From the IMG/VR virus record IMGVR_UViG_2565956611_000003, positions 1 through 15,035 of that record: a stretch of DNA of 15,035 nucleotides. One strand, 5' to 3'. The notes under the pieces were generated by a model that saw nothing but the letters and a program-made list of their open reading frames with translations, made no database searches and was not told the origin of the DNA. Both the position numbers and the translations under genes were made by a program. Every line of letters begins with the position of its first letter. The first letter of the stretch is position 1. Origin of the DNA: a virus. Its lineage: Duplodnaviria; Heunggongvirae; Uroviricota; Caudoviricetes. Positions 1 to 12,860 of this stretch are shown piece by piece.

Positions 1-789
1 AGTTTGCTCCTGCCATAACGTGAAGAAGCAATGACCTGGTGGTCCGTGACTTCCCTACGCTGGCATTATCCAGATCAGGTGATACGGGTATTTCTTACTA
101 ATTCCTGTTAGTAATTGATAATAAATAAGTTTTTAAGAATGCATAAATTAAAAGCCTCAAAACTGACCACACAACTGACCACACATTTCGTTGAAGCTCT
201 ACGAACAACGATGAACAATAACAAACAAAAGGGAAATTTGCTGGTGGTTTTGCGTAACCGTTATCATTTTCCGGCTATCCGTCATGAAGCTGGTGGATGA
301 TCTGCGTGGTGATTTCCACCATTCAGAGCAGGGGCGGTCATCATGACCATGCCATAACAAAAACCCCATATTCGTGGGTTTTCTGTGTTGTGGCTATTCT
401 GCCGTTGCCGTGCTGGTGGATATTTCCGGTATGTGGCTCACCATATCGGCATCAGGCCCACCAGCGTGAAGCGTTTTTCATTTTTCGCGGGTATAAAAAA
501 TCGATGGGGCTGGCAGTCCGGAAGACGTCAGGGTACAGAGATTTGACCCGCCCCTCCCTGTGCATGAGCACAATAAGTAACCGAAGGCGGAATTCCGCCC
601 TCGGTGCTCACATATGAGAAACGATATTTCTTACACCGATACCCTTTATTTGGGTATCGCGAGTAAGCCCCAAAATCTGGGTGTTACTCTTACTACCCAA
701 ACTACGGGTAGTTTCATAGTCGAGTTGCAGATCTGCAACTCGCCACCAGTTGCTAAGTGCATTTTTGCACTTTCGGTAATATCAACCAG

Positions 790-9150: not shown

Positions 9151-10968
9151 TTAATTTTTGCTATCGTCATTAGTGACCGATACACATGATGGCATCCAGT
9201 CTTCTGATTCCTCCGTCAGTGTCACGTTTGAACGAAAACCGTGCTTCGTTTTCCGTTTCATATACTCCCTGCCATATTCCGCCATTGCCCCCGGCATATC
9301 TTTACCGAAGCGCGTCAGTGTTACAGGTTTACCAAACCCATGTGCCCTCATATAAGCCAGATAGGCATGATAGAGATACCTGCGTGGGCTGAATGGCACA
9401 ATTTCAGCATTACCCACTAACAGGCCATCACACATTACCGACGCCATGAGATAGCCGCAGAAGTCCACCAGCGAATCCCCCTCTCGCTTTATCGCCAGTG
9501 CTTCTTCAGATTTCTGCTGCTCATATAACAGGCGTCTGGCTTCGTCCTGGTCAGCAAACCGTGTAAGCAGATGGCGAATCACTACCGCCAGCTCACCTTC
9601 TATTTTTTCCGCCAGCATTGGATCGCGTTCGTTCTCCGGTACAACTTCCGAAAAATTGAATATCACCCGACGACGTGAGATCCCCCCGCTGCGGTCACTG
9701 AATGACATGGCGTTATTGTTAACCGCCAGCACTACTGCCGGAATACGCGTTGAGTAGGGGGCTTTGTGTTTCGGGTCAATTGCCACCTTGTCACCGCCTG
9801 TAATAGCCTTAATCCCTGCCCCATCACCAGCGTAGCGGGTCATATCCGGCATGATAATCAGCGAAAAGCCAACCACTAACGCGCGTTCCCTTGCATCTTC
9901 CAGCGCCTTCATGCTTGCCGATACTGTGTTGGCCTTACCCGCCAGCATGGTGCAAATCTCCGCCATCACGCTTTTACCACTTCCCCCTGGACCTGTTACC
10001 TCAATGAATAACTGCCAGTCGTACCGGTTCGCCAGCACCATGAATAATGCAGCCAGTACGCGATCCGCCTTGCGGTCATTCTCAGCCACCGAACGGCGTA
10101 ACCACTTCCAGAAATTCGGCGCATGTGTTGCCAGCGTTTCCCCCTCTGCTGGTGGGCTGAAAGGTAATTCACTGGCAATTAACAACCAGTCGTTTTTGTT
10201 ATGCTCCCGAAAATTACCTGTTCTGGTATCAAATACCCCGTTACTGAATCCAATCAGGTTACGGGCTGTATTCCCCATTACAGGCAAACTTAACTTCATG
10301 GTATCGACCGCCGATTTAATGGCGTTCTGCGAATAGCTGATCTCCGCATCAATGAAAATCTGTGCCATAGCTCGCTGTAATTCTTTATCCTGTACTGGCT
10401 CCCATACAACGCCGTTGTAATGGTGAACAGTGTCAGAGTCAGCATGAATCGCCAGTTCACCGCCATAATGTGCCAGGAGAACTTCGCCGCGTTGACTTGC
10501 TCCCATCTGGTTAAGCGCCAGTGATGAAGCGTTATCGTCTTTTACCCGCTCTTTTTTCTTTACAGGCAGTTCAACTACCTTTTTCTTTTCCGCCTGCTCT
10601 GCCCGTTCACGTTCCAGATATTCGCGCCAGTTCTCCCGTTTCTGGCTGTGCATTCCTTCAGGGTAATAATCAGCATCCCTGACACCTGCCACTGCCAGTT
10701 TCTGCCCGATGGTATTAACAAGCCCCGGACGCAATAACCCCGCCTGATAGAGACGCACGCGATAGCGTCCGTCCGATACGATTTGCAGGTTGTCCAGTTC
10801 GGCAAGTTGTTGCTCTCCAAGCCAGACAGGTGGCACGTTATCGCCAGCCAGTCGCCCGTCCTGTTCCTGCCACTGTTTCGCATGTGCCCACGCATCACTA
10901 CCCGCAAAAATGATGACTTCCGTCATTTTGTCACGCGGCTGGTGTTTTAAATTTGGCGCTTTTTTCAT
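9151..10968 (-). CDS. Replication initiator, primase/helicase type (P4 alpha-like / D5-like SF3 helicase with Walker A)
   Basis: About 605 aa from ATG 10968 (SD GGAGAGAG upstream; ATGA overlap with the preceding ORF). Walker A motif TGPGGSGKS mid-protein; large multi-domain protein next to the iterons. The ORF-track start at 10983 is GTG. Confidence 0.8.
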   Translation of the reverse strand: MKKAPNLKHQPRDKMTEVIIFAGSDAWAHAKQWQEQDGRLAGDNVPPVWLGEQQLAELDNLQIVSDGRYRVRLYQAGLLRPGLVNTIGQKLAVAGVRDADYYPEGMHSQKRENWREYLERERAEQAEKKKVVELPVKKKERVKDDNASSLALNQMGASQRGEVLLAHYGGELAIHADSDTVHHYNGVVWEPVQDKELQRAMAQIFIDAEISYSQNAIKSAVDTMKLSLPVMGNTARNLIGFSNGVFDTRTGNFREHNKNDWLLIASELPFSPPAEGETLATHAPNFWKWLRRSVAENDRKADRVLAALFMVLANRYDWQLFIEVTGPGGSGKSVMAEICTMLAGKANTVSASMKALEDARERALVVGFSLIIMPDMTRYAGDGAGIKAITGGDKVAIDPKHKAPYSTRIPAVVLAVNNNAMSFSDRSGGISRRRVIFNFSEVVPENERDPMLAEKIEGELAVVIRHLLTRFADQDEARRLLYEQQKSEEALAIKREGDSLVDFCGYLMASVMCDGLLVGNAEIVPFSPRRYLYHAYLAYMRAHGFGKPVTLTRFGKDMPGAMAEYGREYMKRKTKHGFRSNVTLTEESEDWMPSCVSVTNDDSKN

Positions 10969-11264
10969 TTCTGCTCTCTCCACGCGGCAATCATGTTTTT
11001 TAGTTCCTGTAGTTTTTTATCAACATCCATACATGACACATGGTTATTTCTGGAAAGCGGGATTTCCCGACTGAATCTGCTAATAAAGATCTCCACGTTC
11101 AGCGAACTAAGAAATGAATAGCCATCACGGATAAAATACACACGGTCAAACATCAGTTCTTTTACCGTTACTCTGTTACCGTTCTTATCCAGATAAATAG
11201 CGCCGGGGATAATTTGGGGGTGTGCATAACCGCTGGCAGTCAAGCCAGATAAATACGTTCTCAT
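10965..11264 (-). CDS. Hypothetical protein (99 aa)
   Basis: ATG at 11264; stop overlaps the primase start (ATGA). Moderately AT-rich. No family recognised. Confidence 0.5.
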   Translation of the reverse strand: MRTYLSGLTASGYAHPQIIPGAIYLDKNGNRVTVKELMFDRVYFIRDGYSFLSSLNVEIFISRFSREIPLSRNNHVSCMDVDKKLQELKNMIAAWREQK

Positions 11265-11270
11265 GATTAT

Positions 11271-11591
11271 TTATCCCCGATTTGAATCAGTATTCGCTTT
11301 CTTTATAGCATTTAATGCATCTGTGGCATTTTCAATGGTGCACCGTAACGAAATATCAAAATGTCCAAGCATTGCCAGTAACAAACCGATATTACCCATA
11401 TCAATGCGCATGGCCTTTTCGTCATAGTCCTCATTTTCTGACGCATGCCACATCAGGCTACCAATTGACGCAACAGCCATTGATATATTGTCAGTAGCCC
11501 CATCCGCAGCGGAATAAACCTTTTTAGCAATATCATGCTCACAGTTAAAATGCGGATTAATCAGGTACTGGTAATTTGACATATCAGGCAT
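11271..11591 (-). CDS. Hypothetical protein (106 aa)
   Basis: ATG at 11591 preceded by a G7 run acting as SD; 6-nt gap to the next ORF. No family recognised. Confidence 0.5.
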   Translation of the reverse strand: MPDMSNYQYLINPHFNCEHDIAKKVYSAADGATDNISMAVASIGSLMWHASENEDYDEKAMRIDMGNIGLLLAMLGHFDISLRCTIENATDALNAIKKANTDSNRG

Positions 11592-11787
11592 GGCACCCCC
11601 CCTGACGAATACGGGCGGCGAATACCATCACGCAGCCAGCCGGGGATTGCTGGCGTGCTTCCTGTTCGCTGCTGGCCTCAATGGTAATCACGCGCGGTTG
11701 TGCCGTGCTCAGGGCGATAAAACGCCAGATGTATTTATTCAGGTTGTACGAGTCCCGCCCTTGCGGGTGTATGGTATGATTTCTCAT
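11584..11787 (-). CDS. Hypothetical small protein (67 aa from the internal ATG; ORF-track version starts at a TTG at 11877)
   Basis: ATG at 11787 with GAGG SD. First gene after the leftward promoter. The 3' end contains the G7 tract and overlaps the next gene by 8 nt; it may be the N-terminal part of a frameshifted longer gene. Confidence 0.4.
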   Translation of the reverse strand: MRNHTIHPQGRDSYNLNKYIWRFIALSTAQPRVITIEASSEQEARQQSPAGCVMVFAARIRQGGCHA

Positions 11788-11885
11788 AGCTGCCTCGATA
11801 CTCTCGTTATCGTTGGTGGTTAGACGCCCCGTATGTGTTTCCGGCACTGCGGGGCGTTGCTCTTTGTATTTCAACAATCCTTTCG

Positions 11886-11963
11886 GTGTGTTTCATGTTA
11901 TGAGCGCATGAAACACACGTCAAGGCTTTTTGTATTTCTTTTTTTGTGTATACTGAAACACAC
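11886..11963. promoter_or_regulatory. Divergent promoter/operator region with three TGAAACACAC sites
   Basis: Perfect 12-bp inverted repeat GTGTGTTTCATG (11886-11897) / CATGAAACACAC (11907-11918) overlaps a leftward TTGACG-17-TAACAT promoter (-35 at 11923-11918, -10 at 11900-11895, minus strand). A third TGAAACACAC (11954-11963) overlaps a rightward TATACT -10 (11949-11954) upstream of the 11985 gene. Confidence 0.5.
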
Positions 11964-11984
11964 CGATGATTAGGAGTTTCAGAA

Positions 11985-12290
11985 ATGGCAACGGCTAACA
12001 AAAACGCAAAATCACAACTGACAACTGTCAGAGTCCCACTAGATGTTATGCAAGGGATGGAATCCGTTAAGCTGGACGGCGAAAGCAATGCCGGATTTAT
12101 CGTAACCGCCATGCGCGGAGAAATAGCCCGCCGCCAAGCAGAAGGCAGCGGAGAAAATCCCCTTGTGTCGTCACTGGATGCCCTGGCTAAGGTCGAACAA
12201 ATCGGCATCAAAGCAGCGGAAGAAATCGGGCAGCTTGTCACCGTTGCACGCGAAGAACTCCAGCGTCGCAAGACCAAAGAACCAGAGTAA
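11985..12290 (+). CDS. Putative small DNA-binding regulator (101 aa; possible ribbon-helix-helix type)
   Basis: ATG 11985 with AGGAG 8 nt upstream; typical enterobacterial codon usage. N-terminal QLTTVRVPLDVMQGM resembles a beta-strand-then-helix RHH start; this is a weak inference. Convergent with alpA. Confidence 0.55.
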   Translation: MATANKNAKSQLTTVRVPLDVMQGMESVKLDGESNAGFIVTAMRGEIARRQAEGSGENPLVSSLDALAKVEQIGIKAAEEIGQLVTVAREELQRRKTKEPE

Positions 12291-12332
12291 TCACCATCAG
12301 CGCCGTGGTGTAAGGTATTACGGCGCATTGCT

Positions 12333-12521
12333 ATGCAGGACAACACAATGACCGATAAAGAATTGACCAAAACATTATCACCGGCACGGAAAAGACGGCG
12401 CAGAAAGATAGAGCATGAATCAGAAAGATTCGCGCCATGTGCTTTTGCTCTTGAGAAATTCCTTAAAGAGCACAGGAAAAAGCTCTCGTTGCAAACCTTG
12501 GAACGAACCAAATCTGACTGA
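12333..12521 (+). CDS. Hypothetical basic small protein (62 aa), doubtful
   Basis: Follows the 101-aa gene and precedes the 12590 terminator; contains an RKRRRRK stretch. Weak SD and several rare codons (AGA, AGG, CGG, ATA). Confidence 0.3.
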   Translation: MQDNTMTDKELTKTLSPARKRRRRKIEHESERFAPCAFALEKFLKEHRKKLSLQTLERTKSD

Positions 12522-12589
12522 TCACATTGCCCACCAGCCGCAAATGTGGCATTGTTGGTGATGCGTTCAAGTTTAGTGTGTATCCATTG

Positions 12590-12618
12590 GCGACCGCCCC
12601 CGGTCGTCTTTGTTTTAT
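12590..12618 (+). terminator. Rho-independent terminator for the plus-strand operon
   Basis: Stem CGACCG (12591-12596), loop CCCC, CGGTCG (12601-12606), followed by TCTTTGTTTT. No U-run on the opposite strand. Confidence 0.6.
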
Positions 12619-12635
12619 ATGTCATATGCTCCCCT

Positions 12636-12860
12636 TTACGCTGCCTTACCTGAATTAACGCGGTCACGGCTTTGCACCCAGTCCATAACTTCGGAAAGCA
12701 ACCAGCCTACAGAACGCCCCCCAAGATTACGGCGAGACGGAAAGCCCCCTTTCTTCTCCAGTTCGTAGCGTGTAGTACGGCTGACGCCTGTTAACTTACG
12801 ACATTCATCCTCACGAATTACGCGATCTGTTAGTGATTGAAATTGTGTATTTTGATTCAT
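12636..12860 (-). CDS. alpA: AlpA-family prophage transcriptional regulator (small HTH excisionase-like activator)
   Basis: 74 aa (MNQNTQFQSLTDRVIREDECRKLTGVSRTTRYELEKKGGFPSRRNLGGRSVGWLLSEVMDWVQ...) matches the AlpA/CP4-57 regulator pattern. ATG at 12860 with GAGGG SD. Position near the integrase is typical. Confidence 0.85.
   Translation of the reverse strand: MNQNTQFQSLTDRVIREDECRKLTGVSRTTRYELEKKGGFPSRRNLGGRSVGWLLSEVMDWVQSRDRVNSGKAA

Follow-up and report, generated by a model that had tools for sequence, protein, structure and literature searches.

A G7 run at the junction of an icd-like gene and its downstream neighbour in a phage satellite of Escherichia coli: a probable Shine-Dalgarno element between two overlapping genes

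A 15,035-nt stretch of viral DNA (the window, by which we mean the whole stretch analysed) carries a run of seven G residues at the point where two small open reading frames meet. Our analyses indicate that these are very likely two genuine genes, ORF1 and ORF2, joined by a start/stop overlap with a Shine-Dalgarno (SD) element, and probably translationally coupled or tightly co-translated. The initial annotation of this DNA had placed three readings side by side, a homopolymer sequencing error, a slipped-strand phase-variable switch and two genuinely separate overlapping genes. The last of these agrees with the data: frame and overlap are conserved in E. coli and in other genera, the pN/pS of ORF2 is 0.25 and stand-alone homologues of ORF2 exist.

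The junction lies on the minus strand and is made up of the following elements.

11584-11787, minus strand: ORF1, a 67-aa host cell division inhibitor Icd-like protein with its ATG at 11787 (NF033153; RefSeq WP_012311676.1)
11271-11591, minus strand: ORF2, a 106-aa conserved hypothetical protein (phrog_15327; RefSeq WP_001113141.1)
11596-11602, minus strand: the G7 run, C7 on the plus strand, read directly from the sequence
11584-11591, minus strand: ATGCCTGA, the 8 nt in which the start of ORF2 and the stop of ORF1 overlap, read directly

The nucleotide sequence of the minus-strand junction is ...GCC GCC CGT ATT CGT CAG GGG GGG TGC CAT GCC TGA, in which the G7 run codes for Gly-Gly near the C-terminus of the Icd-like ORF1, in its variable tail. 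The ORF1 TGA occupies 11586-11584 and the ORF2 ATG 11591-11589; with ORF1 as the reference, ORF2 is read in the +1 frame. Upstream of the ORF2 ATG, A11603 and the G7 run (AGGGGGGG) are followed by a TGCC spacer of 4 nt. Removal of one G from the run of the window gives ...RIRQGGAMPDMSNYQ... and a single ORF of 171 aa, while the addition of two G's likewise gives a single ORF, of 172 aa. The run, the 8-nt overlap, the offset by one frame and the fusion of about 170 aa on loss of a single G were all found as the initial annotation had described them, and the 171-aa ORF exists in strain elppa10. The window is 100% identical by BLAST to E. coli SMS-3-5 (NC_010498.1), for which the RefSeq annotation has both genes at identical coordinates.

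No other G or C run in the window is seven or longer. Since 1.2 runs of this kind are expected under a first-order Markov model of the window, with a probability of 0.71 that one or more occur, the presence of the run is statistically unremarkable. Where it lies is no accident, since it occupies the SD site of ORF2.

Junctions were read at 27 E. coli loci. The distance from the CAG/AAG codon through the ATG was exactly 16 nt in 22 of 22 unfused junctions from complete E. coli genomes, while the G run within these constant-spacing junctions ranged in length from 2 to 9 (CAGGAGGTG, AAGGAGGTG, CAGGGGGTG, CAGGGGGTA, G7 and G9). The stop overlap was retained in every frame-preserving E. coli copy read. 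Canonical SD variants were CAGGAGGTG (L023) and AAGGAGGTG (L017); the commonest E. coli variant was CAGGGGGTG (G5-T-G), and further variants were CAGGGGGTA, CAGGGGGGG (window, L020) and CAGGGGGGGGG followed by CC (L041). The same positions double as Gly, Glu or Val codons in the variable ORF1 C-terminal tail.

Comparison with eight other genera (Escherichia ruysiae, Cedecea, Citrobacter, Rahnella, Rosenbergiella, Enterobacter, Superficieibacter and Intestinirhabdus) revealed CAGGAGGTG, GTGGAGGTG, CGAGAGGTG or CAGGGGGTG at the same position, followed by a 5-nt spacer and ATGNNTRA. The ATGNNTRA overlap was 8 nt in seven of the eight and 11 nt in Cedecea. The Klebsiella satellite LR881103 carries CGGGAGGGGCACCATGCGTGA at the SD position together with the ATGNNTRA overlap, and an E. 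coli sister module, with a different downstream gene, has an 11-nt overlap. The earlier suggestion that the run covers the SD of the downstream ORF is borne out by relatives, which have the canonical AGGAGGTG in this place. An invariant G7 in homologous elements, which the initial annotation had envisaged for two separate genes, was not what we saw: the tract varies, but mostly by substitutions that keep the two-gene frame.

Duplexes of all these variants with the 3' end of 16S rRNA gave -10.8 to -15 kcal/mol (-13.9 for the window), as against a mean of -1.6 +/- 2.5 kcal/mol for random 16-mers of the window, 0.7% of which were at -9 or lower. Because all variants pair strongly with the 16S rRNA 3' end, the run can be assigned as the Shine-Dalgarno element of ORF2.

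The following course of events would fit these sequences. The G7 run would act as the SD of ORF2 from within the last codons of ORF1, in an early leftward operon of the satellite. It would be a degenerate AGGAGGTG, altered by an A to G and then by a T to G substitution, in which G-U wobble still permits a strong duplex with the 3' end of 16S rRNA. Ribosomes ending ORF1 at the TGA (11586-11584) would find themselves 5 nt beyond the ORF2 ATG (11591), which would itself be presented 4 nt downstream of the purine run. As a by-product, uninterrupted runs of G7-G9 might undergo rare -1 or +2 events that fuse ORF1 to ORF2.

A start/stop overlap on the same strand and an SD inside the upstream ORF at functional spacing, the hallmarks of a coupled pair, are both present, and translational coupling of ORF1 and ORF2 is probable on this analysis. 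Against coupling, the strong SD could support fully independent initiation. Folding of 111 nt around the junction gave no significant RNA structure masking the SD (z = -0.53), and nothing in the local structure therefore calls for translation of the upstream ORF.

The same segment could be read as a site of programmed recoding, in which a prfB-like +1 frameshift or transcriptional slippage yields some Icd-ORF2 fusion from the G7 template. In prfB an SD-like element lies 3 nt upstream of a shift-prone codon, which is followed by UGA. The junction bears a superficial likeness to this layout, with AGGGGGGG, a spacer and GCC UGA, and a +1 shift at GCC-UGA enters the ORF2 frame. The spacer is however 6 nt long and not 3 nt, the last codon ahead of the stop is variable (GCC, GCT, GAC, GTG, GCG, GCA, GGC) and offers no +1 re-pairing, and a -1 slip on the G run leads into the wrong frame and to a stop after about 12 codons. 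Moreover the run is interrupted in most alleles and is accompanied by no stimulatory structure. Programmed +1 (prfB type) and -1 frameshifting were rejected because of the 6-nt spacing, the variable codon that does not re-pair and the wrong -1 frame, and recoding of any kind appears highly improbable.

Searches with the ORF2 protein matched phrog_15327 (E = 2e-71) and no Pfam or NCBIfam family. The pN/pS pooled over 15 E. coli loci was 0.245, which indicates that ORF2 is under purifying selection. Relatives are scarce, only 15 having been found among the 1.84 billion representatives searched. Stand-alone homologues (P0140, P0146 and P0147) are 100-102 aa long and 29-42% identical to ORF2. A 102-aa homologue in Superficieibacter (cf. 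P0140) stands behind an Icd-like gene at the same junction, and the two-gene arrangement therefore persists at 42% identity. The AlphaFold2 model of ORF2 is all-helical with four helices and of low confidence (pLDDT 53, pTM 0.31; shallow alignment of 6 sequences).

ORF1 matched the NCBIfam model NF033153 over positions 1-48 of 48 with 69.6 bits (cutoff 25, E = 1.7e-19) and phrog_6196 with E = 4.6e-43. Its pooled pN/pS of 0.68 has no useful meaning, since the sequences sampled belong to three or more divergent Icd-like modules. Database proteins called Icd-like with 214-300 aa were considered as natural fusions and rejected, as they are N-terminal over-extensions with a normal tail end.

The two genes are also modular. 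A single ORF2 is found downstream of at least three divergent Icd-like variants, and in 98 genomes the Icd-like variant of the window is followed by a different gene (MCNNT...). When the 651-nt region was aligned by BLAST, many alignments ended at query positions 303-318, which is the junction. To judge from these alignments, the block '...VFAARIRQ + SD + ATG' behaves as a boundary between exchangeable modules.

A 96-nt junction query found matches in 472 of 5,426 complete E. coli genomes. An evenly spaced sample of 60 rows from these matches revealed that the span equalled that of the query in all and that two genes were annotated in 59; in the remaining row the match was partial and concerned a copy whose ORF2 is truncated. 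The frequency of G5-type alleles is based on this 60-row sample and on exact-match queries, and not on all 472 sequences. The exact-match queries gave the following counts.

G7-TGCC, the allele of the window: 21 exact matches, two genes
G6-TGCC: 0 exact matches, fused if present
G8-TGCC: 0 exact matches, shifted and not fused
G4-TGTGCC: 0 exact matches, fused if present
G9-CC, with an additional T to G substitution: 9 exact matches, two genes
G9-TGCC, strain ST648: 1 exact match, fused
G8-CC, strain elppa10: 1 exact match, fused

All frame-preserving copies seen are annotated with two genes in RefSeq. The sister module matched 98 genomes and was unfused in 60 of 60 sampled rows. These counts suggest that G7 is a genuine minor allele. 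An error in the sequencing or assembly of the window, with a true tract of G6 (or G9) and one protein of about 171 aa, would be in keeping with the reputation of homopolymers as classic error sites and with the few assemblies that carry fused ORFs. The 96-nt G7 junction is, however, identical in 21 independently sequenced complete genomes, all other alleles and genera conserve its frame relation, and the ORF2 homologues stand alone. The chance of such an error is practically negligible, and this part of the initial annotation finds no support for the window.

Fused alleles were found in two complete genomes. Strain ST648 (CP008697) carries a 172-aa ORF (...RIRQGGGAMPDM...) and strain elppa10 (CP083478) a 171-aa ORF identical to the fusion that the initial annotation had predicted. 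In both, PGAP annotates an 'incomplete' Icd-like pseudogene and a normal ORF2. ST648 differs from the window by 3 SNPs and by a GG insertion, the sole indel in 15,035 nt, while elppa10 differs from strain M505 by 160 SNPs and by a deletion of one G, the sole indel in 25,096 nt. The other homopolymers of the window, including eleven 7-nt A/T runs, showed no length change. Among about 34 complete genomes whose tract is long (G7 or more), 2 had frame-fusing length variants, and none was detected among G5-type copies. Uninterrupted G7-G9 alleles thus seem, from these comparisons, to be the most indel-prone site of the region.

Further fused proteins came from a protein search that used the hypothetical fusion as query and was biased toward fused forms. 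They carried G4-TGTGCC (P0001, P0002, P0007 and P0136, from Logan assemblies), G6-CGCC (P0016 and P0135, from one NCBI assembly and two Logan assemblies) or G4-TGCACC (P0021, from one NCBI draft). The unfused cluster P0003 has 1,694 members. The 36-member P0001 cluster was considered as a common fused form and rejected, since most of its members are normal 106-aa proteins or partial ones that were clustered with the longest sequence. Additional frameshifts elsewhere in P0007, P0010 and P0013 (Logan/ENA) indicate error-prone reads in these entries. Single-protein homologues, which the initial annotation had proposed to look for, were therefore found in small number (ST648, elppa10 and the draft and Logan proteins), but ORF2 homologues also stand alone and unfused forms prevail.

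These alleles bear on the slipped-strand switch, in which the G tract would toggle reversibly and at high frequency between separate proteins and an Icd-ORF2 fusion. Each of the frame-fusing variants of the two complete genomes is the sole indel against a near relative, every indel allele found (G9-TGCC, G8-CC, G4-TGTGCC, G6-CGCC and G4-TGCACC) restores a single ORF, and in some lineages the tract was lengthened by substitution from G5 to G7 to G9. The G5-T-G interruption is nevertheless present in the large majority of E. coli copies, with GGAGG in some and AGGAGGTG in other genera, and the two-gene frame is kept in all 21 exact G7 and 9 exact G9-CC copies. Exact G6 and G8-TGCC alleles are absent from the complete genomes, the protein search favoured fused forms and the frameshifts of P0007, P0010 and P0013 point to read errors. 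A run of seven G is also short for a contingency locus in E. coli, which is mismatch-repair proficient.

A slippery tract is not conserved, because most copies have G5-T-G and other genera have AGGAGGTG. The tract is not inert either, since fused length variants exist in two complete genomes and in draft and Logan backgrounds. The phase-variable switch of the initial annotation accordingly keeps the two long-tract genomes with fusing variants and the few draft and Logan alleles on its side, and has against it the interrupted tract of most copies; we consider it unlikely. Any biological consequence of the fusions themselves is putative, and it appears decidedly unlikely that an uninterrupted G7-G9 run serves as a heritable, reversible switch to an Icd-ORF2 fusion that alters host cell division or satellite induction. 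The fused alleles appear, from the sequences compared, to be sporadic mutations or assembly errors and no conserved switch.

The two overlapping genes belong to an island that in strain SMS-3-5 lies between rcnR and thiM and measures about 14.5 kb in the RefSeq annotation. It holds genes for an integrase, a DUF6387 protein and an AlpA-family regulator (Pfam for AlpA), together with a divergent YlcI/YnfO gene. The operon follows in the order Icd-like, ORF2 (hypothetical), DUF4222, D5/P4-type primase, a small ORF and SSB. Beyond the operon are genes for the major capsid protein, prohead protease, portal, head-tail connector, HNH, TerS and TerL, while tail genes are absent. The features next to the two genes are as follows.

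10965-11264, minus strand: DUF4222 gene (PF13973, E = 1.6e-16; RefSeq coordinates)
9151-10968, minus strand: D5/P4-type DNA primase family protein, a satellite replication gene (Pfam D5_N, Pox_D5 and DUF5906; RefSeq)
11895-11923, minus strand: promoter-like site TTGACG-17-TAACAT upstream of ORF1 (consensus scan, in which sites were no more numerous than in shuffles)
11872-11932, no strand assigned: inverted repeat that spans the promoter-like site, its arms 26 nt long and 81% complementary (repeat search)

The DUF4222 gene, which begins 6 nt past the stop of ORF2, shares 4 nt with the start of the primase gene, and a second 4-nt overlap joins SSB to the gene preceding it; start/stop overlaps are in this way found elsewhere in the operon. 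The primase scored 95.1 bits against TIGR01613, under the cutoff of 108.7 of that model. Judged by position only, the promoter-like site is likely the start of the leftward operon, and the inverted repeat around it is a candidate operator to which a regulatory role might be ascribed.

The junction is ordinary, is already annotated as two genes in RefSeq and matters little beyond correct annotation. Caution is advised with fused 'Icd-like' ORFs of about 171 aa and with the 'incomplete' pseudogenes of PGAP (ST648, elppa10), which result from a change of 1-2 nt in the tract. Many 'Icd-like' database proteins are over-extended, as described above. The locus illustrates how a ribosome-binding site may drift into a homopolymer and thereby become a local hot spot for indels. 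If the fused alleles were real and reversible, the locus would offer a modest and testable case of a phage satellite with phase variation.

Several known systems resemble parts of this arrangement. With int, alpA, rep/primase and a full capsid and packaging module but no tail genes, the island has the gene set of a capsid-forming PICI (cf-PICI), and its gene content (int, AlpA, primase/rep, capsid, packaging, tail-less) is like that of the prototype EcCIEDL933. It fits the cf-PICI description of bioRxiv 10.1101/2022.09.08.507074, in the searched text of which the SMS-3-5 island is not named. By its genes, the window is best classed as a capsid-forming PICI-type phage satellite of E. coli. The Icd-like/ORF2 module is not confined to such elements, and in elppa10 and M505 it sits in a different, non-capsid-forming island at cspD-clpS.

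The icd-ant1 pair of the P1 immI operon resembles ORF1-ORF2 in having a small Icd-type ORF whose stop is overlapped by the start of the next gene. In the P1 GenBank record icd extends over 48470-48691 and ant1 over 48688-49731, an overlap of 4 nt, whereas the overlap in the satellite is 8 nt (ATGCCTGA). Coupling of icd and ant is stated on the basis of a note in this record, that icd is 'apparently required for expression of ant', and of PMC8198154, according to which icd participates in regulating ant. The downstream gene of P1 is Ant, while the 106-aa ORF2 of the satellite is without detected similarity to Ant, and a C4-type antisense RNA as in P1 was not found in the window by Rfam search with E up to 1. 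P1 Icd inhibits cell division via FtsZ (PMC11897509); ORF1 is classed as Icd-like by the family model, and inhibition of FtsZ by it is putative. The resemblance of ORF1 to P1 Icd appears remote, as tblastn with ORF1 against 50,697 phage records did not retrieve P1 and gave the satellite-like LR881103 as the sole match.

Contingency loci of Neisseria, Haemophilus and Campylobacter share with the window a coding poly-G tract whose length sets the frame and, as far as the assemblies show, varies among strains. The tract studied here is, in contrast, not conserved as a repeat and is shorter than typical; it is located at a gene junction and SD and not early in an ORF, and its length variants are rare. 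The E. coli host is, moreover, mismatch-repair proficient.

The junction also has the layout of coupled overlapping genes with ATGA or ATGNNTGA junctions, which lie on the same strand, overlap by start and stop and have a strong SD 4-6 nt upstream, inside the upstream ORF, as is the case here. Compared with these there is no essential difference, and the only peculiarity of the window is that in the G7 allele the SD has mutated to a homopolymer.

Analysis of the tract of seven G residues read as the Shine-Dalgarno (SD) sequence of ORF2 revealed a frame-preserving G9 allele, CAGGGGGGGGGCC, at positions 96-104 of E. coli locus L041 (NZ_OZ501679.1), where the ORF1 tail reads QGGGHA*. This allele is present in nine complete genomes and originated by an additional T->G substitution, which indicates that the SD sequence has drifted stepwise, from AGGAGGTG to AGGGGGTG, then to G7 and finally to G9. 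The junction of locus L010 (strain HS13-1) carries the variant CAGGGGGTATGCCATG, in which an additional out-of-frame ATG precedes the start codon of ORF2 by 5 nt.

The database entries P0139, P0141 and P0145 are very large proteins (1,222-1,651 aa) whose TPR-like repeats (...LATTLGNLGLILQDLGQYEEAK...) match residues ~20-106 of ORF2 in 4-12 repeated stretches, and these matches hint at a TPR-like helical hairpin within ORF2. Decayed copies of ORF2 were identified in two loci. In L021 (strain LR-31) codon 9 is changed from TAC to the stop codon TAG and is followed by a different downstream sequence, and in L013 (strain CFS3292) the 3' end is truncated by an IS1A insertion and 102 aa remain.

The following features of the window were found upstream of the Icd-like gene (ORF1):

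11807-12667, minus strand: long spurious ORF, antisense through the YlcI/YnfO gene
11872-11932: inverted repeat with 26-nt arms, 81% complementary, enclosing the promoter-like site
11895-11923, minus strand: promoter-like site TTGACG-17-TAACAT, inside the inverted repeat

The inverted repeat and the promoter-like site lie between the Icd-like gene and the divergent YlcI/YnfO gene and are candidates for the operator/promoter that controls the leftward operon. In other strains the counterpart of the spurious antisense ORF shares its reading frame with the Icd-like ORF, and many database proteins named Icd-like or ash family (214-300 aa) are N-terminal over-extensions of a ~67-aa protein; the entries concerned are P0023, P0033, P0039, P0068 and P0100.

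The chromosomal flank of the island is marked by the following match:

34-116, minus strand: TPP riboswitch-like match (RF00059, 35.1 bits, E = 0.00088), under the RF00059 gathering score of 54.3

According to the SMS-3-5 annotation thiM is directly downstream of this match, its start being just past the left end of the window.

The module YlcI / Icd-like / ORF2 / DUF4222 / primase / SSB was also found in loci L043 and L044 (elppa10 and M505), in a different, smaller satellite, which is integrated between cspD/yljB and clpS and carries DUF1441 and a ClpP-like protease-capsid fusion gene. The regulatory-replication module is therefore common to the cf-PICI (capsid-forming PICI) and another PICI type.
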